From positions 297,322 to 361,321 of the forward strand of contig CAYOLO010000001.1 of assembly GCA_964404855.1 (NCBI GenBank): a stretch of DNA of 64,000 nucleotides. Reading direction: 5' to 3'. Below are positions 3,476 to 53,360 of the stretch, piece after piece (the stretch's first letter is position 1; each line of letters begins with the position of its first letter). Source of the DNA: an uncultured Gammaproteobacteria bacterium. Lineage in GTDB: Bacteria > Patescibacteriota > Microgenomatia > CAYQLK01. Position numbers and translations under genes: made by a program. The notes under the pieces were generated by a model. The model was not told the origin of the DNA. It did not search any database and worked only from the letters and a program-made list of their open reading frames with translations.

Positions 3476-3504
3476 TTGACAAACTATAGGTTATATTATA
3501 TAAT
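3476..3504 (+). promoter_or_regulatory. consensus sigma70-type promoter TTGACA-17-TATAAT
   Basis: ttgaca at 3476-3481, a 17-nt spacer, tataat at 3499-3504. Confidence 0.6.
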
Positions 3505-3542: not shown

Positions 3543-4328
3543 GTGTCGGTTGAGCCTCAAGAGCGTAAAAAGTTCTTTAAATCTGCTGCTTTTCTGGTTT
3601 TGTCTCTCGCCAAAGCACCATATGGAGGTGTTCCCCTGGTTAGTACGAGAATCATTAAGATGTCTCTGGCTCTGGTAAGCGTTGTGGCACTCGCCATGAT
3701 GCTAGGCTCGATTATGCTTGGTTCTACCACAAGTGGAGCTTATGCAGATCGCCCCGATCCGACGCCAATGGGAACGAATGTTCCCAACACTCCGACCGAA
3801 GTTCCGGAGCCCTGTAAGGGTACTCCGGTATCTGGATCGGCGTGTATAACGCTGACTCCGACGCCTACGGCCACCCCGACGAAGACGGCTACTCCAACGA
3901 GTACGCCAACCAAGACGGCTACGCCTACTGCAACGAGCACACCGAAGACGCCTACGGCCACCCCGACGAAGACGGCTACGCCAAAGACGCCAACGGCAAC
4001 ACCTACTGGTACGCCGACCAAGCCGACGAAGACACCTACGCCGACCAAGACGCCGAAAACTTCGACGCCAACGGCAACACCTACGACTGTTACGGCCACT
4101 CCAACTACGGTTGTTACGGTGACGGTGACTCCGACGCCAACCGCGACCTCGGTGATTTATATCCCCACGGCTACAGTTCGTGCGGATACGGGTGATCCGA
4201 TGTTACTGGTTGGAAGCCCGACATCGGGTGGTGGTCCAGTGGGTTGGATGATGATTACTGGTGCCGTTCTGGCGCTGGTGGCAATCATCGGATTCCTCGC
4301 AATGAGGGTACGCAATCGAGAGATTTAG
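3543..4328 (+). CDS. secreted Thr/Pro-rich protein ending in TATVRADTGDP plus a TM and basic tail
   Basis: The track ORF starts at GTG 3543. The more likely start is ATG 3660, which gives a canonical signal peptide MSLALVSVVALAMMLGSIMLGSTTSGAYA. TPTKTATPT repeats. The C-terminus IPTATVRADTGDPML-TM-RVRNREI is shared with the upstream gene. Confidence 0.6.
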   Translation: MSVEPQERKKFFKSAAFLVLSLAKAPYGGVPLVSTRIIKMSLALVSVVALAMMLGSIMLGSTTSGAYADRPDPTPMGTNVPNTPTEVPEPCKGTPVSGSACITLTPTPTATPTKTATPTSTPTKTATPTATSTPKTPTATPTKTATPKTPTATPTGTPTKPTKTPTPTKTPKTSTPTATPTTVTATPTTVVTVTVTPTPTATSVIYIPTATVRADTGDPMLLVGSPTSGGGPVGWMMITGAVLALVAIIGFLAMRVRNREI

Positions 4329-8040: not shown

Positions 8041-8802
8041 TTGTCTTATTTTTTATTTGTAGTTACTCGTAATAAAGTTATCAAATAGTTATCCACAGAA
8101 ACTGATTTTGTTCTTAGAACAAGTTCATACACATATTTTGCCTATCCTAATAGGCTTATATTTTTGTTTGTTATAAATAAAATACTATCGGATATAGGTT
8201 TTTTATGGATAAATAGCTATAGGGCAGTAAATATGTTGACATAAAAATTATAACCGTGTAATATCAAATTACAGACTGAATGACTGTGTAATTTAAATCT
8301 CGTATAGCGTGAAAGAGTTGTTTGACAGTGAATTGTCACTGGCTTCACTCTTTGTCTTTTGGACTTGTTCCAGAAGGGAAGTTTTAGCTTAAAGCTTAGC
8401 AAGGCTTTTGTCCTAAAAAGAGCTTTGTTAGCTTTAAGCCAAGAGATAAGTAGCTCGCACTTTTTATTTTTAATCTTTAAGGCAAACTTTCTTGTTTATC
8501 TGATCTAAGGCAAATTGATTGGTAGGGAACGGAAAGGTTAAAGATTCGAACTAATTAGGTGTAGGGAAAAATAAGCATAAAAAAGAGCATTACTACCGCA
8601 GACTGAATGAACTCGTATAGCAATGCTCTGTGAGGTGTTTTAGGGAAGCGACTTAGGGCAGCTAAGTTGCTTTCCTTGTTTATTAATGTAAATCAGAGTT
8701 CGTATTACTGTCAAGGGGTAAAATAGGTAATTTTTACCTATTTTGAAGCTAAAATCCATTTTTTGAGTAAATATTGTATACATAATATATTGCCCTATAG
8801 TA

Positions 8803-8831
8803 TTGACATTATAACTAATCTTTAGTATAAT
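8803..8831 (+). promoter_or_regulatory. consensus sigma70-type promoter TTGACA-17-TATAAT in front of the sortase-fusion gene
   Basis: ttgaca at 8803-8808, a 17-nt spacer, tataat at 8826-8831. The ATG lies at 8850, so the leader is very short. Confidence 0.6.
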
Positions 8832-8849: not shown

Positions 8850-11558
8850 ATGGTTAGAGTAATAGATAGTGTAGTAAATGACGAGAACGAAATTGCCCAT
8901 TCGATTGAGGGTTCTGTTGCAAACCCATTTGAACAATTAACACAAGAGGAGCTAGATCTTATAGGCTTGTCAGAAATATACGACAATGCCAAATTAGAAA
9001 CTATCAAAGAAACTTATAATTCTAGATTTGCTAGATCAAGAAACATTTTCAGAACATCAAAATTAAGTAATTTTTCCGAGCGTACTAAAGCTAAAGGTAA
9101 GAAAATGGCTTTTAGATCTGGAACCGCTTTTGTACTAAATTATTCCGCAGATGCTTTAAGTATTGTTCCTGTCACAGTACCGGGCGCTATTGTTGCGTCA
9201 ACGGTTGCTGGTGCGTTGGGTACTGGTTATGACAGTTTTATTAATAAACAAACATTCCACAAACTTTTTGGATATTCACAAACACAAGAATTTTTGACCG
9301 CTAAGTCAACTTTAGAACCGGATGCCTTAAAAGGCAGAAAAAGAGAATACAGAGATTTAATCGAAAGATTAGATGATGCCGATTATGCTGGTCGAGCTGA
9401 TGTTGAAGCCGATTTGGCTGAGGTTAAAAAATTAATTCGAGCCGTTGAAGATGGAATGATTTATAACGCTAGATCCTCTGTAGAGGTGAAAGTGACATCT
9501 GATAAGACTGCAGCGAATAAAGGTTGGATTGAAGTTGATGGTCTTAATGATGGTTTGGTTTATTTATACGAACAAAAAAGAAAACTTACCGGTAAATTAG
9601 TTGAATTTGAAGACGATTTTGAAGCAAAAAGAGATATTTTGCTTGGACTAATGCCAAGTGATATTGCAAAACAAAAAGACAAAGTTATTGAAGATGTAGT
9701 CGCTGAAAGAATTCAAACTCTTAAATCTCGAATTAAATCTAGACAAAACCGTATGTGGGTTGGTGAAACTGTAGCTTCTACAGCTTTATCTGTTACAGGT
9801 GGTTTGATTGTAGGTAAGTGGGTAGAAAGAAGTTTGGGTTGGGGTGAGGAAATCGCAAAAGCGACAAAATCAAGCCTGAATCAATATTTTGAATATAACA
9901 AAGATTTATTTATTGAAAACCCTGTGGCTTTTAAAGGTACTTTGTTATCTGTGGCTGATACTCATATTGCTGATCAAATCGACAAAGTTTTATCTGAAGA
10001 ACTCGATAAGCTAACCAAGGAAGAATTAAGTTTAAAAGAATTTGCAGAATTTAAGGGAATTACTGATGGTAGCCAGTTTAGGCCAATTTATGAGTCAGAA
10101 TTTTTGAATAATGCTGATTCTAATCAAATTAAATCCCTAATAAATGCAGCTGGAGAAGCTGATTTGGATACAACAGAAGGTGCAATTGATTTTGTTACAG
10201 CATCAGGAATGGACAGGTTTGCGGTTGATGTGGAGGCTAATTTGCCGATATTAACTATTTTTGAAGAAAAAGAGATTGCTACAGGAGATGAAATGGTTTC
10301 TTTAATGAAAAGAAATCCTAGAGTTTTTGGTGATCTTGATCAGAGATATATTGGTGATGTTAAGTATTTTGATGCTATTTCAAGAATGCCAAAAGAAGAT
10401 TTGGATAAATATATCCAAAGTTTTGGTGATTTGGAGCAAGGCAATTACACTGCTGAGGCTGCTGTTAAAAAACTTGAGTTTTTGGCTTCACAAGCTGATG
10501 TTTCTTACGAAGAAAGATTAGTTAGAGTACCTATTGTAGAAAATTATCAAGTTGTTAGTGGTGATAGTGTTTATCAAATTCTTGAGAAAAATAATATTGC
10601 TCTTGATAGTCCCGAGTCAGTTAAATTTGTTTCTGACAACAGAGAATCATTACTGATTACTGCGTCGCAATTTGGTAATGAAGATGATCTTAATCAGATG
10701 TTAGCTAAGATTGATTCTGGTGAAATGGATTCGATTAGTGACGATTTAGCCTTGTCTGGTCGAGCTTTGCATTGGATTAATACTGGTGACCAGTTTTCAA
10801 TACAAACAGGGTTTGAGGAAAGAGTCGAAAGAGTAGCGATAGGAGAAAAGCCTGCGTGGCTTACACCTATTGAAGCTCCAAAAATAAGCGAAGTTCCAGT
10901 TAATGGTCCTGAAACAGAACACATTGTTACTGCTGAAAAGATTATTGACCTAAGAAATAGTCATATTCCAGAAAAATTAGAGATATCCAGTATTGGATTA
11001 TCTACTGACGTTAATGAGGTTGCTAGTTTGAGTAACGTTGATTACCCATACTTAAACAGAGATTTTGTTGGACATATGGCCGAAACAGGTGCCATGGGGT
11101 ATGACGATTGGCCAAACAAAAATATGATTATTGGAGGACACGTAAGTTACCAAGGTAATCCTGCTGTTTTTTATAATCTTCACAAAGTTCAAGGCGGGGA
11201 AGTAATCAAAATAACTGACGTATCCGGTCGTGAGACTTTATACAAAATCAGAAGCATGGAAATAGTTCACGAGTCAGAAATTGGTCAGAGAGTAGGGCTT
11301 GCTTCCAATGATGAAATCCTTACTTTAATTACATGTCAGTACAATCAAAACGAAAATAAGATAGTTGTGGTTGCAGACAAGTGGAATCCAACTGTCGCTA
11401 CGACTGATGAGGATAAATTAGCTCAAATTAGAAGCCAATTAGCTGCAGTTAAACAAGTTTTTGATTTTTCTGAAGCAACTCCAGAGGTAACAAAAACTAC
11501 AAGTAATATAGCTGATCTTAAAAAGTTTAGAGATCAAATTTTGAGTAAAGTAGCCTAA
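8850..11558 (+). CDS. 902-aa protein made of a large N-terminal domain of unknown function (two hydrophobic hairpins) fused to a C-terminal class-A-like sortase domain
   Basis: The C-terminal ~170 aa match SrtA: IIGGHV (His), GGEVIKITDVSGRETLYKI, and LTLITCQYNQNENK (TLxTC catalytic Cys). Upstream there are two hydrophobic segments (residues ~90-125 and ~300-325). Confidence 0.75.
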   Translation: MVRVIDSVVNDENEIAHSIEGSVANPFEQLTQEELDLIGLSEIYDNAKLETIKETYNSRFARSRNIFRTSKLSNFSERTKAKGKKMAFRSGTAFVLNYSADALSIVPVTVPGAIVASTVAGALGTGYDSFINKQTFHKLFGYSQTQEFLTAKSTLEPDALKGRKREYRDLIERLDDADYAGRADVEADLAEVKKLIRAVEDGMIYNARSSVEVKVTSDKTAANKGWIEVDGLNDGLVYLYEQKRKLTGKLVEFEDDFEAKRDILLGLMPSDIAKQKDKVIEDVVAERIQTLKSRIKSRQNRMWVGETVASTALSVTGGLIVGKWVERSLGWGEEIAKATKSSLNQYFEYNKDLFIENPVAFKGTLLSVADTHIADQIDKVLSEELDKLTKEELSLKEFAEFKGITDGSQFRPIYESEFLNNADSNQIKSLINAAGEADLDTTEGAIDFVTASGMDRFAVDVEANLPILTIFEEKEIATGDEMVSLMKRNPRVFGDLDQRYIGDVKYFDAISRMPKEDLDKYIQSFGDLEQGNYTAEAAVKKLEFLASQADVSYEERLVRVPIVENYQVVSGDSVYQILEKNNIALDSPESVKFVSDNRESLLITASQFGNEDDLNQMLAKIDSGEMDSISDDLALSGRALHWINTGDQFSIQTGFEERVERVAIGEKPAWLTPIEAPKISEVPVNGPETEHIVTAEKIIDLRNSHIPEKLEISSIGLSTDVNEVASLSNVDYPYLNRDFVGHMAETGAMGYDDWPNKNMIIGGHVSYQGNPAVFYNLHKVQGGEVIKITDVSGRETLYKIRSMEIVHESEIGQRVGLASNDEILTLITCQYNQNENKIVVVADKWNPTVATTDEDKLAQIRSQLAAVKQVFDFSEATPEVTKTTSNIADLKKFRDQILSKVA

Positions 11559-11588
11559 CTATTATCTATTGTAAATAACCTATAGTAC

Positions 11589-11617
11589 TTGACAAAAGGT
11601 TATTATTAATATATAAT
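11589..11617 (+). promoter_or_regulatory. consensus promoter TTGACA-17-TATAAT
   Basis: ttgaca at 11589-11594, tataat at 11612-11617. Confidence 0.55.
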
Positions 11618-11674
11618 TGTTAGGCAATAATATATGCCAGTTTGTAATACAAAGTTTTACTCTGATATATATTG

Positions 11675-11703
11675 TTGACAAAATAAAAACAGGTGTTTAT
11701 TAT
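11675..11703 (+). promoter_or_regulatory. second tandem promoter TTGACA-17-TATTAT
   Basis: ttgaca at 11675-11680, tattat at 11698-11703. Confidence 0.45.
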
Positions 11704-11730
11704 CCTGTAGTTACTAGTTATAAAACATAA

Positions 11731-13068
11731 ATGAAACTAAACAAAAAGGCGACATTTTTAACTTTAACCGGACTAGTTGTAATGTCTGGAATTTTCCCTA
11801 TGATTGGCGGCTTTGCTGCTGGTAACCCTAATTTGACTCTTGAACAAAGAGTTAAGAACTATGGCAATGGGCACGAGTCTTTAAACGAAAGCCCGTTTAG
11901 CTTTACACAAGCTGGAGCGGTTCCTAATGATTTCATGCAATATATAGTCACACTTGAAAATTCAGGTGATGACGCTAATAACGTTAAAGTAAAGGTTAAC
12001 TTGCCTGACGAAACAGTCGTGGGTAAGAAAGCTGCAGTTTACGTGGTTGGTTCAGCTGGGTTTGATATTGGTCCGGCTGTAGTTGGTGCAACTTCAATCA
12101 AATATTTTGACGATAACTCTGAAATAACTCCTGCTGGAAGCGATTCAGACGGACGAGATGAAAGAGTAGATTCTATTGAGTTTGCATTAGAAAAAGTTCC
12201 TTCTGGAACTGTTGGATCAACTGATCGTGAAATTAAGATTCAATACTCAGTTAGAATGGCTAAAGATATTGGTGAGTCAGTCGTTAACGACGCTAATGCA
12301 TCTGTTAGCTTGACCTCAACTGAAGTATCAAATGTATCTGGTAACGAAGTTCACACAAAATTATCAGGCAAACCTGAGTTTAAGACCGCTTCTGATACCT
12401 TTAAGGTTCAGGCTGGTCCAAGCGAAGAGTCTGATGATTGGAAAAATGATTCAGTCGAAATTGATCCTGAGTCTGACGCATTCTTAGGTGTTTGGGTAAA
12501 GAACTTATTCCACAACACGACTGCTAATAACCCAGTAATTGAGGTTACTTGGCCACAAGAATACAAGAACGAACACACATTGACAGCTACAATTAGCGGT
12601 TCTAATGTGTCGAGTGTCAGTGATACAGTTAAAGTTAAGATCAAGAACGGTCAAGTTAATAAGCTTGAAGTGATTGATGGTAGCTTGATGTATCAGAACT
12701 ACAATAGCCAATCAATTGGCGCAACTATTACTAAGACTGCTAATGGTTTTAGAGTGGCTGCTAATGACTCAATTGTTGGAGGTAATGCAAATGTAACCTT
12801 AGTTAATGCTCACTTAAGAGCAGTTAAACAAGGTACTACCACGACTACAACTAAAGAAAAAGTAGTTGAGAAAGAGTTTATTACTGAAAAAGTAGAAAAG
12901 AGAGTTGTTATTACTGAACTTCCTAAGACCGGTCCTGAAATATTTGGTCTGATTGGTGCTATGGGAGCAATCCCAGGCGGACTATTCTTAAGAAAGTTTA
13001 AGAGTAAAAAGAACGACTTTATCTCTTTTGGTCACGAAGTAGTAAAGAGAAACAACAAAAGAAAATAA
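11731..13068 (+). CDS. LPXTG (LPKTG) cell-wall-anchored surface protein with a DUF11/CARDB-like repeat domain
   Basis: Signal peptide MKLNKKATFLTLTGLVVMSG. The C-terminus is LPKTG, then a hydrophobic stretch PEIFGLIGAMGAIPGGLFL, then RKFKSKK. An internal YIVTLENSGDDANNVKVKVNLPDE motif resembles DUF11. Confidence 0.8.
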   Translation: MKLNKKATFLTLTGLVVMSGIFPMIGGFAAGNPNLTLEQRVKNYGNGHESLNESPFSFTQAGAVPNDFMQYIVTLENSGDDANNVKVKVNLPDETVVGKKAAVYVVGSAGFDIGPAVVGATSIKYFDDNSEITPAGSDSDGRDERVDSIEFALEKVPSGTVGSTDREIKIQYSVRMAKDIGESVVNDANASVSLTSTEVSNVSGNEVHTKLSGKPEFKTASDTFKVQAGPSEESDDWKNDSVEIDPESDAFLGVWVKNLFHNTTANNPVIEVTWPQEYKNEHTLTATISGSNVSSVSDTVKVKIKNGQVNKLEVIDGSLMYQNYNSQSIGATITKTANGFRVAANDSIVGGNANVTLVNAHLRAVKQGTTTTTTKEKVVEKEFITEKVEKRVVITELPKTGPEIFGLIGAMGAIPGGLFLRKFKSKKNDFISFGHEVVKRNNKRK

Positions 13069-17091: not shown

Positions 17092-20000
17092 CTAGTTGAG
17101 GCTAAGCTCTTGGTTGATGATTAGATAGCTGACGGTCAGGTCTACTGTTTGAACTTGGGCAAGTTTAACCCTAAACCCTATACCAGCTAGTTTTTCTGTG
17201 ACGCTAACGGCAACTGGTAGATCTCCTTCGACTGTGAGCAGAATGATTGAGTTCTCGGTCACAGCAGTTGTTTCGACGTCAAATAGGTCGTATCCACTGG
17301 TTAAGAGTGTGTTGCCGGCGATGCGGTTGAGCGGATTTTCCTCGTCACCTTTAACTGTAATAGTACTGACTGTGAGGTCTTTAGTTTCGAGCTTGGCTAT
17401 TTTGACCAAACCTTCGGTGTCAATTACAAGTGATCCTCTGAGTAGGTCAAGTCCGCCAGAAGTTGGTAAGTTTTGTAGGTATAGAGTGCCTGATAGCACA
17501 TTTAATTGGCTGCCGAGACCGTCTGCGGTGGTATCGAGGGTAAATATTCCGTCCTGACTTAAACTTCCAGCAATATTAGTGTTACTTAGTGAGACTGAAT
17601 TGAGGAATTCAACTTCGTCTTTGAAAGTTGCTTGTTGTTCGACTGTTAGATTAATAACTGTTAAATCTTGAGGTTCTTGGTTTTCAAGCTCAGCTGATTG
17701 ACTAGATTCTGGTTGCGCACTTTCTGAGGCGCCAAGTACGGCAGACGAAGAGGCGATAGCGTCGGTAATCATCTTATCTATTTCTTCCCTAGTAATCGGA
17801 CCTTGGGCTTCTACTTGTTGGTTATTAGGAGTAACTTCGGAGTTTTCTTCACCATCGATACTGCCGTTGATGCCAATTAGAAGTTTGAGATTTTCTTCAG
17901 ATAATGTTGTTTGTCCAATGGTTATGGAATCATTAGCAACGATGTTCGTAGCTTCAATAATATCTTGGATTTGAGTTATTTCTGAGAGTATTTCTTCTTC
18001 AGTGAATTCTGTTTCTTCGCTTGTGGAATAGTTTGGAGCTTCCCCTGGGACAAATCCTCGTCCGTCTTGTTTGTTGGCAACATTGCCCCATTTTTCGTGA
18101 TCAAAACGAGGCGCGGTAAGACGATATGAGATTTCACAGTTACAGTTGCCGAAGATAGTTAAACGATTATTGGCTGGATCTCTTTCGTACCAGACTTTGG
18201 CGCGGCTGTCGTTAGCACTAAGAAGTACGACTAAGTCCTTCATATTTTGCCCAAAATCGGTGATTCGGTAGAAAAGCCCTAGGTCGCTTGAAGTTTCAAG
18301 TTCTGGGAAGTTGATTTGATATGAGAAGTTGCCAGTTGAACCCTCTGGGCGAGTAAGATTGGCAACGCCAGTTGTTTCTTCTTTTTGACCAGTCATAGAA
18401 GCTACATAAGTAGCGTATTTGGTACCATCGATGAAATATGGCGGGTCGATTGTTCCAAAGTCAACTTTAAGAGTTCCGTCGCCAAAGTTGATTTCTCCGT
18501 TGGTTGGGTCGTTACTCTGGATTACTGATCCATTGGTAAGGGTAATTGTTGAGGCAACCGGTGACGATTCCAATACAAAATGACTGTCTTCAGTCGCGCT
18601 GTTATTATTGCGACCTCCGAGATAGGAAGCTGATGTGTCTCTGACCCATCCCCATGCAGAGCTTGTGGTGGTGGTACAACTAGCACCAACACCATCGTTT
18701 TGACCTGCAACTTGAAGGACATATTTGGAGCCTGCTTGGACTAAGACTGGGGTCGTTAAGACAAATCTGGCCCAAGTAACCGCGCTACCGATATTTAATG
18801 TTTGGTAAGGTCCAGCGAGTAGTGTTCCAGCGCCATCTGAACCGTTTTCGTCATATATACAAACTGAAGCTTCCTCGGTTGCGCCCGCCATACTTATTTT
18901 GGCTTGGACGGTAGATAGATAAATATCAGCGGCTGGAGTGAAGGATTGGGTTTTTACAGCTGTAGCTGAGTTAACTGTGGTTGAGTTGCTAAAGAATCCA
19001 TGGTTGGTGTTTTTTGAGGCCTCCATAGTGAATAGGTAATCAGTCGAGGCGCTGGCTTCTGAGCGACCGCCTGAGTAAATATCAGAAGCAGAAACCGCCC
19101 ATTGCCAAGCTGATGAGGTAGTGGTGGTACATCCTGCGCCGACACCTGTGTTTTGTAGGGCAATTTGAAGAACGTATTTATTATTTCCAAGTAGCGGTAC
19201 GGCTGTGTTAAATGAGAATCTAACATGGCTTATTGTTGATGAAATATTGAGTGTTTGATTAGACATGGCAATTAGTGTGCCTGGGGCATCAGAGTTGTTG
19301 TCATAAATACAAGCAACAGCTTCTTCTGTACCGTTAGTTGATAAAATTTTTGCAACCACAGCAGTAACAGACATTGGGGTGTCTGGGGTGAATGATTGAT
19401 ATTTGGCTGTAGTGTCACTAGTACCGCTGGTGGCAGAGTTGATGATTGCGACACCAGTACCAGAGATGTCTGCGTAAATAGCACCTGTTGCAGAGAATAT
19501 TTCGCCACCGTCTGAGTTGGCGGTATCAAGAATTCTAAGAAGGTTGTTTGTTCCGTCGCGGAAGTTGAATATGCCGTTGTTAGCAACATCAATATTAAGA
19601 GTAGAAGCAGTTGTTGTGATGTCTCCACCGTTAACTGCCACATCGCTAGCGGTTGTAATCAGACCAGCTGTAGAAATACTCCAGTTATCGTCCGTAATTG
19701 AAAGGTTGGTGGTGCTGGCTGAACCTATTGTAATTGTGTTAGCAACTGCGCCGGTTCCAATTTGCACAGTTTTGGCGTTTGTGGCGCCAGTGGCAATTTG
19801 CACTGTTGTTGCTCCAGTGCCAGAGCCAATCGCTACGGTGTTTGTACCACTAGATTGGCCTAAAGTTAATAATCCGGTTTGGGCTGTACCTCCAAAGGTC
19901 ATAGTGCCAGTTGTGGTGCTAGCGCCAACTGTATATGTGGTTCCTGCAACACCATCTAAAGTAAAGTTACCACTACCTGCTCTGAGGTTAAGTGCGTTAG

Positions 20001-22512
20001 CTCCAGATGTATTACCAATTGTGATTGTACCTGTGTAGGAGCTAGTTCCAAGGTTAATCGCGGTTGATCCTGATGTGTTAATGTCAAAAGTGCCGGTGGA
20101 GGTAACACCAGTAGCTCCAGTAATTGCACCAGCGCCTGTAATGTCAAGGGAAGCTGTGTTGAGGAAGTTTGATACAGTTCCTGATATTTCGATAGCGTCT
20201 GTTAGGGTGCCCGAGGTATTGGTAATCATGAGCGCGTTGCTTAAGTTGCTTGAAGCAGCATTGTTTTCAATAAAAATTCCGTTCGTAACAGTTTCTGGAG
20301 TTTTAAGGTTCTCTACCTTGAATAAGGTATCAAAAGCACCAGTGGTAGCTGTGTCGGCTTGGGTTATAAGCATTCCATTAAGTGTGCCAGTTGCGCCTGT
20401 TCCGCTTGGCGTAAGGGTATATGTGTAGCCCGTAGTTGTGGCATCTGTTGTTGGTGTAAAGTTTTGAGCCCAAGTGTAAGTTGCTTGGTTTAGGATAAGG
20501 TTGGCATCGAGATCAAGGGTGTCAGCAAAATCTACAAAGTCAAGAGAGTTGGACGAAGAAGTGGAGTTACAGTTGCCATAGGTTGGTTGGTTACCTGTGC
20601 CGTTGCTTTTAAGACAATCTCCAGATGTGGCGCTTGGGTTGACCTGGTTAAGTACACCACCAGAGGCAATAGTGATAACTGAGCCAACAGTGCTAAGCGA
20701 GGAGAAAGTAATTGTGCCAGAGGAGCTAAGTCCTGTGAATGTAGCTACGCCTGGACCTGTTACACTCCAGTTAGCATCAGAGATAGCAATGTTAGCACTG
20801 CCATTGCCAATGGTGGCTGTGCCTGAATATGAGCTTGTACCAATGTTGATAGCAGTTGAGCCTGATGTGTTGATGTCAAAAGTACCAGTGGAGGTAACAC
20901 CAGTAGCTCCAGTAATTGCACCAGCGCCTGTAATGTCAAGGGAAGCTGTGTTGAGGAAGTTTGATACAGTTCCTGATATTTCGATAGCGTCTGTTAGAGT
21001 TCCAGCTGTGTTGGTAATGTTAATACCATTACTGAGCGTACCTGAGGCTGCATTGTTTTCGATATAAAGCCCGTTTGTGGTTGTTTCTGGAGTTTTAAGG
21101 TTTTCAAGTTTTAGTAGAGAGTCAAAAACGCCTGTATTAGCATTGTCGGATTGAGATATCACAAAACCTTGAAGTGTGCCCGAAGAACCTGTACCTGTTG
21201 GATTGAGTGTGAGCGAGGCTGCGTTTATGGTTGCATCAGAAGTAGGAGTATTAGTGATTTGAATATTGGATCCTTCACCGTTGGTCACGATTAAGTCACC
21301 TGTGCCGTTCGGCGCAAGTGTTAGCGAACCATTGCTGTTAGTGCCAATTGTGGCTGCGCCGCTGAAAATTAGGTTGCCCGAAGAATCTAGAACAGGAACT
21401 TGATTAATATCTGGTGTTTGTGAAGGGAAATAACCAGCTAGAGCGTCGGCGTTAAGTGCATAAGCACTAGAAACTATTCTTTGCCTTGGGGTCATTTCTG
21501 AATCGGCACCGACAGTGACTCCTAGATACAAAGTAGCATTCTCACTAAATAGAGTGCTAGGAATTGTTGTATCTGCAGCACCTGTGTCTCCAAGTAGGAC
21601 TGAAAAAATACCATTCGAGTCTGGTGTAATATTCCAAGTTTTTGATGTCCATTGAGCACTCCCACCTGATGACACAGTGTAGATTTTGAACACAAAGTCG
21701 GTAGCAGAAGTTATTGGAGAACCTGAAGCGTTAGTAATTCGACCTTGGAAAGAAAGAATTCTTGGAGGAGCAACAGCGGCAAGAACTTGACCTTCAAGTG
21801 GGGATGGTTGTGGCGTTTCAAGACTGATTTGGGTTCGGTTGGGGGTAAGCATGAATGTTGATCCAGAGATAACTAGCGCCATTGTGGCGAGCCCAAGGAA
21901 TATTTTTTGTGAGAAGTGTAATTTGGATTTTTTGGTTAGGGTTTTTTGTGGTAAGCCGAGGAGATCTGTTAGTGGCTTGTAAGAAAAACCCCATTTTTTA
22001 AGTTTTTCAAGCTCTTGAGAGAGAGCAAGAAGGCTGATTGCAGCTCCGACAGTCTGCGTTTCGGAGCTGCTGACAGCTTGATTTGCATTGTTTGCCTCAA
22101 TGCTGGCTGTGTTTGTAACTATCTGCTCTGTGGAGTGGTTTGTCAGGTGTGAAAACCCGTTTGCCTCAAACCATTTTGAGAGAGATTTTAGAAATTTGAT
22201 TTGTCGAGAAAGTGTGGATTTAGCAAACTTGTTCTGAACATCCTTGTGGTAGAGCTCGATTGTTTCAATATCGAGTTTGGGATAGTTGGTTCGATTTTGT
22301 TTAATCGACCAAATGACGAATTTCTTTAAATCGGAGCGGTAATTACTATAAGTTGATTTGGATGTTGACGAGAGGGCGAGTGTTTCGAAGTAACCTTTGG
22401 AAGCGTTGAGTATACCAAGAGCAAACTCTTTTTTGGAGTTTTGGACAGGTTTATTTATAGTGCTGGCAGGTATCTTAAGGCCTGAGGCAAACAGGACTTT
22501 TTTCATTGTCAA
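17092..22512 (-). CDS. giant (1806 aa) type-II membrane-anchored surface protein with an N-terminal cytoplasmic integrase-SAM-like domain, one TM, and a huge Thr/Ser/Gly-rich beta-rich ectodomain with internal tandem-duplicated modules
   Basis: N-terminus KSTYSNYRSDLKKFVIWS...IELYH...FAKSTLSRQIKFLKSLSKWF matches the phage-integrase N-terminal SAM-like pattern. TM IFLGLATMALVISGSTFML. Two ~230-aa near-identical modules and two ~150-aa QSFTP...CTTTTSSAW(Q/G)W domains. Confidence 0.75.
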   Translation of the reverse strand: MTMKKVLFASGLKIPASTINKPVQNSKKEFALGILNASKGYFETLALSSTSKSTYSNYRSDLKKFVIWSIKQNRTNYPKLDIETIELYHKDVQNKFAKSTLSRQIKFLKSLSKWFEANGFSHLTNHSTEQIVTNTASIEANNANQAVSSSETQTVGAAISLLALSQELEKLKKWGFSYKPLTDLLGLPQKTLTKKSKLHFSQKIFLGLATMALVISGSTFMLTPNRTQISLETPQPSPLEGQVLAAVAPPRILSFQGRITNASGSPITSATDFVFKIYTVSSGGSAQWTSKTWNITPDSNGIFSVLLGDTGAADTTIPSTLFSENATLYLGVTVGADSEMTPRQRIVSSAYALNADALAGYFPSQTPDINQVPVLDSSGNLIFSGAATIGTNSNGSLTLAPNGTGDLIVTNGEGSNIQITNTPTSDATINAASLTLNPTGTGSSGTLQGFVISQSDNANTGVFDSLLKLENLKTPETTTNGLYIENNAASGTLSNGINITNTAGTLTDAIEISGTVSNFLNTASLDITGAGAITGATGVTSTGTFDINTSGSTAINIGTSSYSGTATIGNGSANIAISDANWSVTGPGVATFTGLSSSGTITFSSLSTVGSVITIASGGVLNQVNPSATSGDCLKSNGTGNQPTYGNCNSTSSSNSLDFVDFADTLDLDANLILNQATYTWAQNFTPTTDATTTGYTYTLTPSGTGATGTLNGMLITQADTATTGAFDTLFKVENLKTPETVTNGIFIENNAASSNLSNALMITNTSGTLTDAIEISGTVSNFLNTASLDITGAGAITGATGVTSTGTFDINTSGSTAINLGTSSYTGTITIGNTSGANALNLRAGSGNFTLDGVAGTTYTVGASTTTGTMTFGGTAQTGLLTLGQSSGTNTVAIGSGTGATTVQIATGATNAKTVQIGTGAVANTITIGSASTTNLSITDDNWSISTAGLITTASDVAVNGGDITTTASTLNIDVANNGIFNFRDGTNNLLRILDTANSDGGEIFSATGAIYADISGTGVAIINSATSGTSDTTAKYQSFTPDTPMSVTAVVAKILSTNGTEEAVACIYDNNSDAPGTLIAMSNQTLNISSTISHVRFSFNTAVPLLGNNKYVLQIALQNTGVGAGCTTTTSSAWQWAVSASDIYSGGRSEASASTDYLFTMEASKNTNHGFFSNSTTVNSATAVKTQSFTPAADIYLSTVQAKISMAGATEEASVCIYDENGSDGAGTLLAGPYQTLNIGSAVTWARFVLTTPVLVQAGSKYVLQVAGQNDGVGASCTTTTSSAWGWVRDTSASYLGGRNNNSATEDSHFVLESSPVASTITLTNGSVIQSNDPTNGEINFGDGTLKVDFGTIDPPYFIDGTKYATYVASMTGQKEETTGVANLTRPEGSTGNFSYQINFPELETSSDLGLFYRITDFGQNMKDLVVLLSANDSRAKVWYERDPANNRLTIFGNCNCEISYRLTAPRFDHEKWGNVANKQDGRGFVPGEAPNYSTSEETEFTEEEILSEITQIQDIIEATNIVANDSITIGQTTLSEENLKLLIGINGSIDGEENSEVTPNNQQVEAQGPITREEIDKMITDAIASSSAVLGASESAQPESSQSAELENQEPQDLTVINLTVEQQATFKDEVEFLNSVSLSNTNIAGSLSQDGIFTLDTTADGLGSQLNVLSGTLYLQNLPTSGGLDLLRGSLVIDTEGLVKIAKLETKDLTVSTITVKGDEENPLNRIAGNTLLTSGYDLFDVETTAVTENSIILLTVEGDLPVAVSVTEKLAGIGFRVKLAQVQTVDLTVSYLIINQELSLN
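19700..21280 (-). repeat. tandem duplication of a ~790-bp coding module inside the giant gene (identical core 20078-20215 = 20870-21007)
   Basis: The antisense track ORFs 20075.. and 20597.. share the identical 45-aa stretch LMSKVPVEVTPVAPVIAPAPVMSREAVLRKFDTVPDISIASVRVP at a 792-bp offset. Confidence 0.6.
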
Positions 22513-23596: not shown

Positions 23597-24652
23597 TTAC
23601 TTCTTCTTTTGAATCTCTGCAATAATCTTGCGGCGGTATGCTCTCAGTGCGAGAACTATCAGCATAACGACTACCGCGATTGCAAGTCCAGCGACGGATA
23701 GAGCCTTCCAAGGGATTACCCAGAACGAAGTGCTTGAGCTTACAATGTCATTTTTGAGTCCGTAGCTAGCAATAACTTCTACGGTGTATTTTCCGAAACC
23801 AAATTCTGGATTGAATTTGCCAACGAAACTTCTGACTGCTCCTGGAAGAACCGAAAGGGCAGAGTTGTTAAATGATTCTCTAGAAACTTCGTTGCCGAAC
23901 ATGTTACGGACTATAATGTCTCCAGCAGGGGTAAGATGGACAGAACCTGAGTTTTCAAGTCTGGCTTCGATACTTACTGGTCCAGATTCGTACATAGACT
24001 TGTCTGTTTTGATGCTTGAGATAGAGAGAGCCTCTTCAACATCTCCAGAAACTCTAACTAAAACGACTGGTCCGGTTCTGGTAATAACTTTCGAACCAGT
24101 TCCAGCTGCTTTTTCAGGAGGAGTGGTGGTTATAAAAACAGCGCCAAAATGTCCGCCTGGTTCAGCGTCTTTTGGAACAGCGATTGAGAAACTAAAAGCT
24201 TCAGAAGATTTTGGATCAATGGTAACTTGAGTTTTTGAAGCTCTGATCCAACTAGCTAATGCGTATTGATTATTAAGTGGTGATTCAGAAAATACAGCAT
24301 CACCGTTTTCGTTAATTGTTTCAATATCAGCGAGAGTTACGTAGTATGTAAGCGGGTCGTCTGATTTGTTGTCGATAACAACTTGGTGAGAACTGGTTTG
24401 ACCAGGGTCTAGGTTGAGATCAAACTTGATTGGCGAGAATGTGATGTTGGTTTCAGCAACCTGCTGTTGAGCGGCTTGAGGTTGTGCTGAAGGAGTTGAT
24501 GCACTTGGTACTCCAATTGGTGTTAATGAATTATTTTCGGATTTGAGTGGTTGAGAAGAAGGGTTGGTTTGAGCTAGTACTGGTGAGGTAGCAAGCGAAA
24601 CTATAAAAGCGGACGAAGCCAATGTAATGGCTAGTTTTTTGGGCAGATTCAT
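23597..24652 (-). CDS. cell-surface protein: signal peptide, Q/P-rich linker, beta-rich domain, C-terminal TM anchor + basic tail (CscA/DUF916-like architecture, tentative)
   Basis: MNLPKKLAITLASSAFIVSLATSPVLA signal. C-terminus SVAGLAIAVVVMLIVLALRAYRRK. Confidence 0.6.
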   Translation of the reverse strand: MNLPKKLAITLASSAFIVSLATSPVLAQTNPSSQPLKSENNSLTPIGVPSASTPSAQPQAAQQQVAETNITFSPIKFDLNLDPGQTSSHQVVIDNKSDDPLTYYVTLADIETINENGDAVFSESPLNNQYALASWIRASKTQVTIDPKSSEAFSFSIAVPKDAEPGGHFGAVFITTTPPEKAAGTGSKVITRTGPVVLVRVSGDVEEALSISSIKTDKSMYESGPVSIEARLENSGSVHLTPAGDIIVRNMFGNEVSRESFNNSALSVLPGAVRSFVGKFNPEFGFGKYTVEVIASYGLKNDIVSSSTSFWVIPWKALSVAGLAIAVVVMLIVLALRAYRRKIIAEIQKKK

Positions 24653-24688
24653 ATTTGTTTTTTTAATTATATATATAAAAATTACAAA

Positions 24689-25744
24689 TTAAAAGATACC
24701 ATAACTAGTATAAGTTAGGGTATTCGTATAGGTACCGGCAGGTTGTGTACCAGTGATTTCTAGCGAGTAGCCAATATCTGCAGTTCCACCAGCTCCTGTG
24801 CCGTTTACAGGTCCACCAGCGTCAAATATTTTGTAAGAAGTTGTACCAGTGAATCCTCCAAATATTGTTCCAGTTGTGTCAAAAGCAGAACCTGATACCA
24901 CATCGGTAGAGGTAAAGCCAAAATGACCCCCTGAAGTTGGTGTGGACCAAGTTGTTTCTGAGTTAAGAGCAGGCGGGGTACCATCATCGAATGAGTTAAT
25001 AGTGTCAGCAGTACCGTTAGTTAGGTTAGCTGACTGTCTAACTGAAGTATTGTGACCGTTAGATGCGTTAGTAGAGACCGTTAGTGTGTGGCAGTGGGTG
25101 TATTGAGTAGCAGTTGATAATGCAACTCCGTTATTGAAGTTAATTGAAGAGGCAGTAGTCCCACTTGATTCACAAGTGTCTCCACCGGAACCAACTGTGC
25201 CAGAGCTTTTGGCGGCTATTGTGAAGTCGTATGTTGCGTTGATTGTGGCGGTAACAGTAACTTGATCTTCTGTTAAGACATCAACGGCAACATTGGAAGA
25301 ATCTTCGTAAGTTCCATCGTTGTTGGCGTCTGTTTCGACTGTGATTACATAAGTAGCAGCCGAAGGGTTAGTGCTAGCTGGAACAACAAAGGTAACAGTA
25401 TCACCGGCATCACAGCTTGAAACAGAGGTGATTGTGCTAGCAAAAGGGCTAGCGCCATTGAATATACCAGCAGTTCCTGCACAAGACCCGTTACCGGTGA
25501 ATGTTGGAGTTAGTGAACCAAACGAAAAGTCGGCAGTAGTTAGTCTGACTCTAGAGGTTGAGCCGAGAGTAGAAGCTAGAGTAAAGGTAAAAGTATGAGT
25601 TGAAGATACGCCAGTTTTAAGCCTGGACATATTGTCAGAAACATCGACTAGTGCGGCAGCTCTGGCAGTCTTGGGCGGGACAAGTGTAAGTAGAATGCTA
25701 ACTATTGGCAGAATAGCAAGAAGTGATAGCTTAGAAATTTTCAT
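24689..25744 (-). CDS. secreted beta-rich surface protein, paralogue 1 of 3 (C-terminal ...GTYTNTLTYTSYGIF)
   Basis: Signal peptide with ARAAA cleavage. Ser/Thr/Gly-rich. Shares a C-terminal domain with the next two genes and with the C-terminus of the 2556-aa protein. Confidence 0.7.
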   Translation of the reverse strand: MKISKLSLLAILPIVSILLTLVPPKTARAAALVDVSDNMSRLKTGVSSTHTFTFTLASTLGSTSRVRLTTADFSFGSLTPTFTGNGSCAGTAGIFNGASPFASTITSVSSCDAGDTVTFVVPASTNPSAATYVITVETDANNDGTYEDSSNVAVDVLTEDQVTVTATINATYDFTIAAKSSGTVGSGGDTCESSGTTASSINFNNGVALSTATQYTHCHTLTVSTNASNGHNTSVRQSANLTNGTADTINSFDDGTPPALNSETTWSTPTSGGHFGFTSTDVVSGSAFDTTGTIFGGFTGTTSYKIFDAGGPVNGTGAGGTADIGYSLEITGTQPAGTYTNTLTYTSYGIF

Positions 25745-25747
25745 GGT

Positions 25748-26809
25748 CTAAAAAATACCGTAGCTAGTGTAGGTGAGAGTGTTGGTGTAAGTACCAGGCT
25801 CCTGTGTACCAAGGATTTCTAGAGAGTAACCGACATTACTAGCAAAGGCGCTAACAGCAGCTGATTCGTCCTGAATCTTGTAGGCAGTGGTACCAGTGAA
25901 CCCGGCAAAGCTTGTGCCGACGGATGAGAAAGATGACCCACCCCAAGTATCACTGGAAGCAAAGCCGAAATGACCTGGTGAGGTAGGTGTTGACCAAGTT
26001 GTTTCTGAGCCAACTGAAGGTGGTGTACCATCATCAAACGAGTTGATAGTGTCTGAGGTACCGTTGGTTAGGTTAGCAGATTGGGCAACAAAGCTTCTAA
26101 AACCAGCAGTAGCGTTAGTGGAGACTGTTAAAGTATGACAGTGAGTGTATTGGGTTGAAGTCGAAAGATTAACACCGTTGTTGAAGTTAATTGAAGAAGC
26201 AGTCGTTCCACTCGATTCGCAAGTGTCACCACCAGAACCAACAGTACCAGATGTTTTGGCAGTAACAGCAAAGTCAAAAGTAGCACCAATTGAAGCTGAA
26301 ACAGTAACTTGATCCTCAGTTAAGATGTCAACGGCAACATTAGACGAGTCTCCGTCTGTGTAGGTGCCGTCGTTGTTAGGGTCAGTTTCAATAACGAATA
26401 CATAAGTAGCAGCTGCAGGGTTGGAAATAGCTGATGTTGTAAGCGTGACCACATCACCTGAACCACAACCAGAAACAGAAGTAAGGTTGGTAACATTTGA
26501 TGACCAAGCGCCGGTTGTAGCTGAACAGCCACCTGTAGCAGAGAAACCTGGGGTACCGGTGTAGGAGAAGCTTGCTTGGGTGATTCTTATTTTAGATGAG
26601 CTACCAAGAGTAGTGGATAAAGTGAATGTCCAAGTGTGGGTGGCAGAAACACCAGTTTTTTGACGGGAAAGGGCATTGCTAACACTCGTAAGTGAGGCTG
26701 CGGCTGTTTGTTTGGGGGTAAGCGTAATTAAAGTGGTCGAAAGAACAACTGCAATAAGGCAGAGTACCGATAGTTTTTTAACGGTTTTGGTTGTTTGGCG
26801 CAGTCGCAT
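25748..26809 (-). CDS. secreted beta-rich surface protein, paralogue 2 of 3
   Basis: Signal peptide. The C-terminal ~198 aa are identical to paralogue 3. Confidence 0.7.
   Translation of the reverse strand: MRLRQTTKTVKKLSVLCLIAVVLSTTLITLTPKQTAAASLTSVSNALSRQKTGVSATHTWTFTLSTTLGSSSKIRITQASFSYTGTPGFSATGGCSATTGAWSSNVTNLTSVSGCGSGDVVTLTTSAISNPAAATYVFVIETDPNNDGTYTDGDSSNVAVDILTEDQVTVSASIGATFDFAVTAKTSGTVGSGGDTCESSGTTASSINFNNGVNLSTSTQYTHCHTLTVSTNATAGFRSFVAQSANLTNGTSDTINSFDDGTPPSVGSETTWSTPTSPGHFGFASSDTWGGSSFSSVGTSFAGFTGTTAYKIQDESAAVSAFASNVGYSLEILGTQEPGTYTNTLTYTSYGIF
25770..26346. repeat. ~580-bp perfect direct repeat, copy A (3' half of paralogue 2)
   Basis: Identical embedded track ORFs 25819..26037 and 26973..27191, and identical flanking sequence. 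The offset is 1154 bp. Confidence 0.8.
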
Positions 26810-26901
26810 TCTTAATATAAAAAGATGTTATCCCAATGATTACAATTAGCTACTGGTTTGTCAATAACTGGAATTGGTTAATTTAACTTAACAATAAAAC
26901 T

Positions 26902-27981
26902 CTAAAAAATTCCGTAACTGGTGTAGGTAAGAGTGTTGGTGTAAGTACCAGGCTCCTGTGTACCAAGGATTTCTAGAGAGTAACCGACATTACTAGCAAA
27001 GGCGCTAACAGCAGCTGATTCGTCCTGAATCTTGTAGGCAGTGGTACCAGTGAACCCGGCAAAGCTTGTGCCGACGGATGAGAAAGATGACCCACCCCAA
27101 GTATCACTGGAAGCAAAGCCGAAATGACCTGGTGAGGTAGGTGTTGACCAAGTTGTTTCTGAGCCAACTGAAGGTGGTGTACCATCATCAAACGAGTTGA
27201 TAGTGTCTGAGGTACCGTTGGTTAGGTTAGCAGATTGGGCAACAAAGCTTCTAAAACCAGCAGTAGCGTTAGTGGAGACTGTTAAAGTATGACAGTGAGT
27301 GTATTGGGTTGAAGTCGAAAGATTAACACCGTTGTTGAAGTTAATTGAAGAAGCAGTCGTTCCACTCGATTCGCAAGTGTCACCACCAGAACCAACAGTA
27401 CCAGATGTTTTGGCAGTAACAGCAAAGTCAAAAGTAGCACCAATTGAAGCTGAAACAGTAACTTGATCTTCAGTTAAGATGTCAACGGCAACATTAGACG
27501 AGTCTTCGTATGTTCCATCGTTGTTAGCGTCGGTTTCTACAACAATGACATATGTGTTTGCGGCAGGATTTGTGCTAGCTGGAACAGTAAAAGTAACGGT
27601 GTCACCAGAATCACAGCTTGTAACAGAGGTTATGGAGCTAACAAAAGGGCTAGAACCGTTAAAGACACCAGCTGTTCCAGCACAAGAGTTGTTACCAGTA
27701 AATGTTGGAGTTAGTGAACCAAACGAAAAGCTAGAGGTGGTTAGTTTGACTCTAGAAGTGCCACCTAGAGTAGAGGCTAAAGTAAAAGTAAAAGTGTGAG
27801 TAGATGAAATACCAGTTTTTTGTCTGGACATTGCGTCAGTTACATTGACAAGGGAAGCAGCATTTACGGTTTTGCCACCGAACATGACGAAGTTAGGAAG
27901 ACCTATTAAAAGGGCAAGTACGAAAAGGAGCAGTTTTTTGAACTTATTCGTGTGAACTGACATTATTGTTATTATCATCAC
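26902..27981 (-). CDS. secreted beta-rich surface protein, paralogue 3 of 3 (mosaic: N-terminus like paralogue 1, C-terminus identical to paralogue 2)
   Basis: N-terminal half LVNVTDAMSRQKTGISSTHTFTFTLASTLGGTSRVKLTT... is ~85% identical to paralogue 1. The C-terminal half is 100% identical to paralogue 2. Confidence 0.7.
   Translation of the reverse strand: MMIITIMSVHTNKFKKLLLFVLALLIGLPNFVMFGGKTVNAASLVNVTDAMSRQKTGISSTHTFTFTLASTLGGTSRVKLTTSSFSFGSLTPTFTGNNSCAGTAGVFNGSSPFVSSITSVTSCDSGDTVTFTVPASTNPAANTYVIVVETDANNDGTYEDSSNVAVDILTEDQVTVSASIGATFDFAVTAKTSGTVGSGGDTCESSGTTASSINFNNGVNLSTSTQYTHCHTLTVSTNATAGFRSFVAQSANLTNGTSDTINSFDDGTPPSVGSETTWSTPTSPGHFGFASSDTWGGSSFSSVGTSFAGFTGTTAYKIQDESAAVSAFASNVGYSLEILGTQEPGTYTNTLTYTSYGIF
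26924..27500. repeat. ~580-bp perfect direct repeat, copy B (3' half of paralogue 3)
   Basis: See copy A. Confidence 0.8.
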
Positions 27982-49469: not shown

Positions 49470-49542
49470 GGGCCGGTAGCTCAGTTGGTAGAGCATCGCA
49501 TTTGCAATGCGAGGGTCAGGAGTTCGAGTCTCCTTCGGTCCA
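49470..49542 (+). tRNA. tRNA-Ala (anticodon UGC), leader of the rRNA unit
   Basis: gggccgg...anticodon loop ttTGCaa...T-arm aggag-ttcgagt-ctcct. G3:U70 pair. Confidence 0.8.
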
Positions 49543-49726
49543 CTGTTTAGACTTTTGAACGGGTATTTTAAAATTAAAATTCCCGTATTTGGGTCTAACC
49601 AAAACAAAAAATTAGGCTTGAACTTTAAAAACTGAATAGAAAATATTTGTCCAAAAATATTTTTGACGAGAAAAACTTTTACAGAAAAGAGAAAAAATTA
49701 GTTCTTTATCTGCGAACAAAAAAGAT

Positions 49727-52622
<2,896 letters not shown>

Positions 52623-52836
52623 GAGTTTTCTTGTTTTTTAAAACAAGATATTTCCAGTCTTTTTTATTCGCAAAAAGAATTTTTCGTTCTTAAGTGTTTA
52701 AAAGGCAAATTAAGTTTTGTGATAAATTTCTTATCTTTAACAATTTATTGTTAAAGGCAGAAATGATTTGCGAAGCAAACATTTCTATTCAGTTTTTAGG
52801 TGTTCAAGCTTTTTTTGTGCTTGAAAGATTACTATT

Positions 52837-53217
52837 ATGGCAAAACCAGAGAGTAAAATATTCGATTTTGATTTAGGTGGTTATTTTGATTTTGGTGCGC
52901 CTGAAATTAAGGGAGAGTTTTCTGAAGATGAGGTTGATTTTTTAGGTGCAGTCTTAAGAGATAGAGTAATGGTTAGAATGCTTGCGAAAAGGGGAATTAA
53001 TGTCCGAGCTGTTTTGAGATACATGCTAAGTGAAGAAGAAATCGTTGGGTTTCTGGAGTCATCTGTGTCAGAAGATGTTATGGCTGAAGTGGCAAAACAT
53101 CTTGATTTTAGAGTGAATACAGCACTTTTGAATGAAAAAATTGAACCTGAGAGTGCAGAAAGGATATTAGCTTTTCGAAATAGCCGACTGCCAGCGTTTA
53201 CTTTGGACCAGTCTTGA
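52837..53217 (+). CDS. hypothetical small acidic protein encoded in the 23S-5S spacer
   Basis: A 126-aa ORF with protein-like composition (MAKPESKIFDFDLGG...). No recognisable family. It lies entirely between the rRNA genes. Confidence 0.35.
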   Translation: MAKPESKIFDFDLGGYFDFGAPEIKGEFSEDEVDFLGAVLRDRVMVRMLAKRGINVRAVLRYMLSEEEIVGFLESSVSEDVMAEVAKHLDFRVNTALLNEKIEPESAERILAFRNSRLPAFTLDQS

Positions 53218-53243
53218 CATTAAGAGTAAATGAAGCTAAAATT

Positions 53244-53360
53244 CTCGAACGGTTGTTGAAGCGGTTTGGTCCCACCTGATCCCATCCCGAACTCAGAAGT
53301 GAAACGAGCCAGCGGTGACAATAGTTATTGCGAAAGCGATTATGAAGATAGCTCGCAGCC
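53244..53360 (+). rRNA. rrf: 5S ribosomal RNA
   Basis: Conserved core ggtcccacctgatcccatcccgaactcagaagtgaaacg. The ends are approximate. Confidence 0.6.

Follow-up and report, generated by a model that had tools for sequence, protein, structure and literature searches.

We analysed a 64,000-nt stretch of DNA (assembly GCA_964404855.1, contig CAYOLO010000001.1, positions 297,322 to 361,321 of the forward strand; hereafter the window) in which a 902-aa protein with a sortase domain, here called the fusion, is encoded directly upstream of a protein with an LPKTG sorting motif. The fusion is a lineage-restricted sortase-superfamily protein of several domains, predicted to be anchored in the membrane, and belongs to Candidatus Curtissbacteria (Candidate Phyla Radiation, CPR/Patescibacteria). 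The reading we favour, with a probability of roughly 0.55, is that it is a specialised substrate-adjacent sortase of unprecedented architecture, with lysine substituted in its catalytic triad, that anchors the neighbouring LPKTG protein to peptidoglycan. The two genes are as follows.

8850 to 11558, + strand: sortase-fusion open reading frame (ORF), whole; 902 aa, multidomain sortase family, full length in homologues P0001 to P0009.
11731 to 13068, + strand: gene of the LPKTG protein; 445 aa, predicted to be secreted.

The original prediction, made from the letters of this DNA, had described a 902-aa sortase fusion directly upstream of an LPKTG substrate, and this description held: the ORF is intact, it matches Pfam Sortase and the LPKTG gene is adjacent. 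The start is the first ATG, and the open frame begins at 8826, 8 codons further 5′. Ten relatives were found among 5.8 billion proteins searched, and nine of these (P0001 to P0009; 902–907 aa, 51–95% identity) align end to end in one unbroken frame with the same architecture. Four species-level genomes likewise hold the gene at full length. NCBI protein MBP6979551.1, titled ‘sortase [Candidatus Curtissbacteria bacterium]’, is a 95%-identical cluster member, and the sortase identity of the fusion is therefore already known from automated annotation. It had been proposed to check whether homologues keep the fusion, and that an undetected frameshift or stop might hide a separate N-terminal gene. 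Two genes fused by sequencing or assembly error could be suspected from the last relative, P0010, which is merely 615 aa; however, P0010 is interrupted by a stretch of Ns in a contig of 0.9x coverage, and its missing N-terminal part is encoded just upstream of the N gap in the same frame context. Since the fusion is full length in at least nine independent assemblies (51–95% identity), we ruled out the frameshift or two-gene reading, which retains next to no probability. The joining of a large N-terminal region to a sortase domain is real and conserved. Its carriers amount to about ten sequence clusters from one Curtissbacteria clade of uncultured organisms, which makes the scope of the finding narrow. 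Four metagenome-assembled genome records of the GTDB collection that hold the fusion (L006–L009) are titled ‘uncultured Gammaproteobacteria bacterium’ and look mislabelled, given the Curtissbacteria protein and the CPR-like genes.

The catalytic domain was delimited by Pfam and by profile alignments to the PDB.

10962 to 11384, + strand: divergent sortase catalytic domain, aa 705–845.

Sortase (PF04203) is the sole Pfam domain of the fusion (aa 710–843, E 1e-16; score 61.2 bits, cutoff 26.6), placing it above the curated threshold for the superfamily (PF04203/MEROPS C60). The motifs IIGGHV (aa 760–765), ETLYKI (aa 795–800) and LTLITC (aa 824–829), from which a SrtA-type domain had been proposed, are all present, and NCBIfam TIGR01076 fell just short (38.5, cutoff 39.35). 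The class-specific NCBIfam models all scored far under their cutoffs (class F 39.3 vs 166, the best; class GN 28.6 vs 158; SrtB 17.9 vs 154) and no class A, C, D or E model was among the matches listed; the SrtA label is therefore unsupported, and judged by these profiles the domain fits none of sortase classes A–F. Nor does it form the C-terminal end of the protein, as had been stated, as 57 further residues follow it. The nearest sortases outside the fusion family share at most 36% identity (E about 4e-6), and a profile search with the sortase domain returned no close non-fusion relatives.

The nearest sequences are class F; among solved structures, sequence profiles and Foldseek both gave their best scores to class C sortases (8t28, 4g1h and 6ixz). 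Together with a substrate gene beside the enzyme gene, as in pilus islands, this could point to a pilus-type (class C-like) polymerase that links LPKTG subunits into a fibre. We rejected that reading as very improbable because regular-expression searches found none of the expected motifs: no DP[W/F/Y] lid motif in the fusion, and neither a YPK pilin motif nor an E-box in the LPKTG protein. The missing class C match among the NCBIfam matches listed, the lack of a C-terminal membrane helix on the fusion, and the presence of a single substrate gene with no tip or base pilin also speak against it.

Two members of the catalytic triad are readily placed. His764 (nt 11139–11141, in IIGGH) is invariant in 11 sequences and aligns with the catalytic His of other sortases, and the Thr828-Cys829 pair in LTLITC is also invariant, with Cys829 (nt 11334–11336) being the sole cysteine among the 902 residues. 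The profile-to-PDB alignments pair IGGH and LITC with the active-site His and Cys of sortases of classes C, B and A, and the placements agree across the PDB searches, a MAFFT alignment with 7 diverse database sortases and a BLASTP comparison with the second sortase of the genome (253 aa, described below). The original prediction regarded a domain lacking Cys, His or Arg on alignment as telling against it; His and Cys are there, but the Arg position is occupied by Lys837 (nt 11358–11360, in NENKIVVV), invariant in the family. Lys837 aligns to the Arg of class C and class B PDB chains in both single-sequence and family-profile searches, to the Arg that every comparison sequence carries in the MAFFT alignment, and to the Arg of the 253-aa enzyme in BLASTP, and the family alignment holds no other invariant Arg near it. 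In the AlphaFold2 (AF2) model, which is of low confidence, K837 opens the strand after the Cys strand.

Codons turn over synonymously at the invariant residues (CAC/CAT at H764, TGT/TGC at C829, AAG/AAA at K837), and this invariance despite synonymous change argues for a working active site; as far as the sequences tell, the site is under purifying selection as a His-Cys-Lys site. The sortase domain as a whole is among the best-conserved parts of the fusion, with 72% mean pairwise identity. It is quite unlikely, then, that the domain is a catalytically impaired pseudo-enzyme and the fusion a membrane or wall scaffold, or a non-cleaving receptor for sorting signals or peptidoglycan: His764, Thr828, Cys829 and Lys837 stay invariant over 51–95% identity with synonymous turnover, and both the single cysteine and the conservation of the domain argue the same way. 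What such a pseudo-enzyme would account for is the strong divergence of the domain from sortases outside the family, the roughly 760 non-catalytic residues that dwarf it, and the loss of an Arg whose mutation (R216A) leaves Streptococcus pyogenes SrtA inactive (PMC9520033).

The Cys-His-Arg triad has been described as ubiquitous in sortases (PMC9520033). In S. pyogenes SrtA the Arg hydrogen-bonds the P4 and P3 carbonyls and not the oxyanion (PMC9520033), and an evolved SrtA with an Arg to Ser change is still an efficient transpeptidase, with altered specificity (PMC9520033). Together these make loss of the Arg compatible with activity, and by analogy the Lys-variant fusion could be active, possibly with altered substrate handling. 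The searchable literature gave no R197K-specific match.

The remainder of the fusion divides into six further segments.

8850 to 9122, + strand: N-terminal segment, aa 1–91; without signal peptide, ends basic (KAKGKKMAFR), predicted cytoplasmic.
9123 to 9230, + strand: first hydrophobic segment, aa 92–127; Gly/Ala-rich with a central VPVTVPG, signal-anchor helix or re-entrant hairpin.
9231 to 9755, + strand: charged, mostly helical region, aa 128–302 (AF2 secondary structure, low confidence); without family match.
9756 to 9824, + strand: second, weaker hydrophobic segment, aa 303–325; preceded by RIKSRQNR.
9825 to 10961, + strand: acidic, mainly helical orphan domain, aa 326–704; net charge −37, predicted extracellular.
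11385 to 11555, + strand: C-terminal helical extension, aa 846–902; non-hydrophobic, last ~16 residues conserved (..ILAKVA).

That the N-terminal region has no recognisable family was borne out by the domain searches and structure prediction that had been suggested for it. For aa 1–705 we found no Pfam, NCBIfam or PHROG family, with sub-fragments scanned against Pfam at E ≤ 10, and an exhaustive phmmer search of 1.84 billion cluster representatives returned its own family alone (two representatives). PDB profile searches with aa 1–330 and aa 326–704 gave nothing significant. AF2, run on the full-length fusion with an 11-sequence alignment, gave a mostly helical N-terminal region at low confidence, with a predicted local distance difference test score (pLDDT) of 65–80 confined to aa ~470–660, and a Foldseek search against the PDB gave weak sortase matches alone, with none for the N-terminal 700 aa.

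The two hydrophobic hairpins of the original prediction are indeed two hydrophobic segments, but only the first is hairpin-like. It spans 36 residues (aa 92–127) with a Kyte-Doolittle peak of 1.83, a central PxxxPG and 75% mean family identity, and its best PDB profile match, non-significant, is a CLC-channel transmembrane helix. The second (aa 303–325; peak 1.25) has the length of a single helix. On its N-terminal side the first is flanked by 6 basic residues and 1 acidic residue in almost every homologue, the second by a conserved 5 basic and 0 acidic, and both C-terminal flanks are near neutral. The conserved basic flanks and the −37 charge fit a predicted topology that leaves the sortase domain outside, with either a signal-anchor helix or a re-entrant hairpin and a single helix in the membrane.

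Within the orphan domain, aa 564–592 (nt 10539–10625; YQVVSGDSVYQILEKNNIALDSPESVK) look like the opening half of a LysM domain, with an hhalign probability of 86% over 21 columns against a profile in which 4 of 6 sequences were entered by hand. The best PDB profile match to aa 326–704 is also a LysM chain (4pxv), at a non-significant E of 0.88. A fit to LysM (PF01476, aa ~564–660) has no Pfam match and needs an insertion of ~50 aa before its second strand, so that we treat these two weak independent pointers to a LysM-like element as a lead only.

The neighbouring protein is laid out as a signal peptide (aa 1–~30), a predicted all-beta body, a Thr/Pro linker, a charged segment, LPKTG, a hydrophobic segment and a tail.

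12919 to 12933, + strand: LPKTG motif, aa 397–401, followed by a Gly-rich hydrophobic segment, aa 402–420.
12991 to 13065, + strand: basic tail of the LPKTG protein, aa 421–445; 25 aa, conserved.

The LPKTG, membrane segment and basic tail that had been read in this gene were confirmed, with the TIGR01167 LPXTG-anchor model just reached (16.1, cutoff 15.9) and the N-terminus signal-peptide-like; the tail is longer than usual for such anchors. LPKTG is invariant in 6 homologues, one of them at 41% identity, and is the sole such sorting signal within the window. The further suggestion of a DUF11-like protein had to be dropped, as no Pfam family matched either the whole protein (E ≤ 0.1) or aa 34–390 (E ≤ 10). 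AF2 modelled the protein as all-beta, Foldseek on this low-confidence model gave nothing significant, and the searchable literature on Curtissbacteria surface proteins gave no specific match.

At 25 aa the cytoplasmic tail of the LPKTG protein is unusually long, as is the tail of about 50 aa of the distant homologue P0063, and within the clade it follows the motif RKF+SKK..FISFGHEV.KRN.KRK. A tail this long and conserved hints at a function beyond stop-transfer.

Promoters were sought across the window with the sigma-70-type consensus TTGACA-N17-TATAAT.

8803 to 8831, + strand: perfect 12/12 promoter of the fusion gene; leader ~12 nt, without obvious Shine-Dalgarno sequence.
11589 to 11617, + strand: perfect 12/12 promoter 5′ of the LPKTG gene.
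11675 to 11703: second site 5′ of the LPKTG gene, 11/12.

The consensus promoters claimed for both genes are thus there. Perfect sites number 3 in 64 kb against 0.04 expected, and two of the three serve the fusion and LPKTG genes. Both hexamers of the site at 8803–8831 are conserved in an alignment of relatives, and no terminator-like site was detected between the two genes.

The genes of the window are in keeping with a CPR/Patescibacteria genome (S1, RadA, a PIN/TRAM membrane protein, Rho, a LysM-M23 peptidase, Obg, giant surface proteins, and 23S and 5S rRNA genes with no 16S gene beside them), and all relatives examined share the order S1, RadA, PIN/TRAM, a gap of ~0.8 kb, fusion, LPKTG gene, Rho, LysM-M23, Obg. 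The LPKTG gene lies 3′ of the fusion in all 7 of the loci that extend far enough downstream. Identities of window proteins to their counterparts in the relatives L001 and L003 are listed below.

Sortase fusion: 51% vs L001, 66% vs L003.
LPKTG protein: 86% vs L001, 88% vs L003.
S1: 87% vs L001, 89% vs L003.
Rho: 86% vs L001, 84% vs L003.
RadA: 76% vs L001, 82% vs L003.
Obg: 73% vs L001, 76% vs L003.

The LPKTG protein is conserved to the level of S1 and Rho, which is unusual among surface proteins and suggests that it has a core envelope role.

A local hidden Markov model search of all six-frame ORFs of the window found a second sortase (E 1.4e-8).

59630 to 60391, + strand: canonical-size sortase, 253 aa; N-terminal membrane anchor, with His, TC and Arg (WKRLLV) present.

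It scores 67.2 bits with Pfam Sortase, has weak NCBIfam class D/C matches and is 25% identical to the catalytic domain of the fusion over 84 aa. Its presence in the same window gives rise to the main rival to our reading, namely that the 253-aa sortase anchors the LPKTG protein and the fusion has some other job (another motif, another acceptor nucleophile or wall remodelling), with their adjacency being conserved gene order. We rate this as less probable than our own reading, and several observations weigh against our own reading, many of them in its favour. The 253-aa enzyme, 47 kb from the fusion, has the full His/Cys/Arg set and could process LPKTG. Because the whole block from S1 to Obg is syntenic in close relatives, the adjacency of fusion and LPKTG gene is unspecific and weak evidence for coupling. 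In a more distant lineage the 41%-identical homologue P0063 keeps LPKTG and adjoins Rho, and its upstream neighbour is a Pro/Thr-rich membrane protein with no sortase domain in the 415 aa visible on the contig. The two genes have separate promoters and their products diverge at very different rates (51–66% and 86–88% identity). The Arg replacement in the evolved SrtA was accompanied by a change of substrate motif (PMC9520033).

The enzyme itself adds further points of this kind. The catalytic Arg that should open the strand after the Cys strand, one of the residues by which sortases are defined, is not found in the fusion, and R216A SrtA is inactive; a plain two-helix topology would leave the sortase domain cytoplasmic; and the AF2 models are poor, with a mean pLDDT of 50.6 for the fusion, whose sortase domain is poorly modelled too, and 48.3 for the LPKTG protein. 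Against assigning the LPKTG protein to the 253-aa enzyme stand the fusion-LPKTG adjacency in every checkable locus, the lack of any other sorting-signal protein detected in the window, the placement of two of the three perfect promoters on this gene pair, and the lack of a detected terminator-like site between them. Of the dedicated sortase-substrate pair originally proposed, the adjacency therefore stands, and the dedication is something we infer only, given the block synteny, the second sortase and P0063.

If the fusion does anchor its neighbour, as we favour, it would insert N-in/C-out, either by a single signal-anchor helix or by a helix preceded by a re-entrant hairpin, so that the sortase domain and the acidic helical domain of ~380 aa would both end up outside the membrane. 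The extracellular orphan domain, maybe with its LysM-like glycan-binding element, would position the enzyme on the wall. The fusion would then cleave LPKTG between Thr and Gly via a thioacyl intermediate on Cys829, with Lys837 taking over the substrate-positioning hydrogen bonds usually made by Arg, and would transfer the cleaved protein to a peptidoglycan precursor, as with SrtB-type sortases encoded beside their substrates. The 253-aa sortase would be the general housekeeping enzyme.

A bolder proposal, which we consider unlikely, is that the fusions form a natural His-Cys-Lys sortase lineage in which the N-terminal module couples or targets the anchoring of one essential envelope protein conserved at the level of ribosomal proteins. 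That module would comprise the cytoplasmic segment, the membrane hairpin and helix, and the extracellular glycan-binding-like domain, and one possible mechanism would be recognition of the long conserved cytoplasmic tail of the LPKTG protein. If true, ultra-small CPR bacteria would pair a sortase with its substrate in a new way.

Other features of the window were also recorded. The conserved 0.8-kb gap 5′ of the fusion (about 8271–8686, + strand) looks like an independent structured RNA gene of ~415 nt.

8236 to 8264, + strand: promoter-like site of the RNA candidate, 10/12.
8642 to 8676, + strand: terminator-like hairpin of the RNA candidate.
RNA candidate in relatives: L001 4222–4609, L003 4176–4611, L006 2572–2994, L009 9419–9846, L025 9226–9649.

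Its 110-nt 3′ block shows 100% identity between lineages with only ~87% identity in S1, and the motif CAGACTGAAT-N-CTCGTATAGC occurs twice, at 8272 and 8599; in a metagenome scan this two-copy arrangement was confined to the lineage. A 22-bp central hairpin shows compensatory changes, and covariation gives modest support, with 10 pairs changed on both sides compared with 4.9 ± 1.5 in shuffles. There was no Rfam match even at E ≤ 10, and no target complementary to the repeated loop was found within the window.

The third perfect promoter (3476–3504) drives a 261-aa Pro/Thr-rich protein (3543–4328, + strand) with hydrophobic N- and C-terminal segments, the latter in the context ...GSPTSGGGP, membrane segment, RVRNREI. 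Upstream of the distant LPKTG homologue, a Pro/Thr-rich protein (L010 1–1248) ends in ...IPKAGNGG and a membrane segment, and the C-termini of these two proteins may be non-canonical sorting signals. Two giant proteins of 1806 and 2556 aa (17092–22512 and 28941–36611, both − strand) have essentially no Pfam matches, and between them lie four tandem paralogous ORFs of ~350 aa (23597–27981, − strand); the one that was scanned has a WxL-interacting-protein peptidoglycan-binding domain. The giant proteins and the four paralogues make up a large envelope/surface gene cluster. Nearly all 2-kb bins of 1–64000 have a positive GC skew, up to +0.38, regardless of gene strand, which recalls the disparity in strand composition that has been reported for a complete genome of Microgenomates (PMC7143001). 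Genes for tRNA-Ala(UGC), 23S rRNA and 5S rRNA lie at 49470–53364. The window holds no 16S rRNA gene and protein-coding ORFs run up to 49238, so the 16S gene appears unlinked.

Sortases are of interest both for drug development, as targets, and for protein engineering, as tools, and a Cys-His-Arg triad is taken to be common to all of them. A Lys variant that nature has conserved would help to address the open question of the role of the Arg (PMC9520033) and might offer altered specificity. CPR/Patescibacteria biology depends on the cell surface, and the locus offers two candidates for core components of the envelope: a clade-specific enzyme, and a strongly promoted, extremely conserved protein that is predicted to be wall-anchored. 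The searchable literature gave no match for the architecture of the fusion, for the invariant Lys in place of its Arg or for the extreme degree to which its neighbour is conserved, and nothing specific on sortases in CPR.

Compared with the sortase superfamily in general, the fusion shares the signature of the eight-strand-barrel domain, the xGH histidine, the TLxTC Thr-Cys pair, a single cysteine, a short loop between the Cys and the strand after it, and an LPxTG-type substrate nearby. It differs in its size, about fourfold the usual (902 aa, as opposed to about 200–300), and in having an invariant Lys in place of the catalytic Arg, and the roughly 700 orphan residues before the sortase domain and the 57 after it are its own. 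The 253-aa sortase of the same genome belongs to the same superfamily and has the His, the TC and an N-terminal anchor, but it keeps the Arg and is without accessory domains. The closest parallel in arrangement comes from substrate-adjacent sortases such as SrtB with IsdC, and oral streptococcal SrtB with AbpA (PMC4974636), where a second sortase also sits beside a single substrate and a general sortase is present as well. Those enzymes, however, are of normal size, retain the Arg and recognise motifs other than LPXTG (NPQTN, for example), whereas the neighbour of the fusion carries a canonical LPKTG. With respect to the active site, the comparison is with the lab-evolved S. aureus SrtA (Arg to Ser, LMVGG-selective), which is an efficient transpeptidase with no triad Arg and shows that positioning of the substrate is the main role of the Arg (PMC9520033). 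That enzyme is artificial, carries many mutations and has Ser rather than Lys, while the fusion is natural and conserved across its clade.

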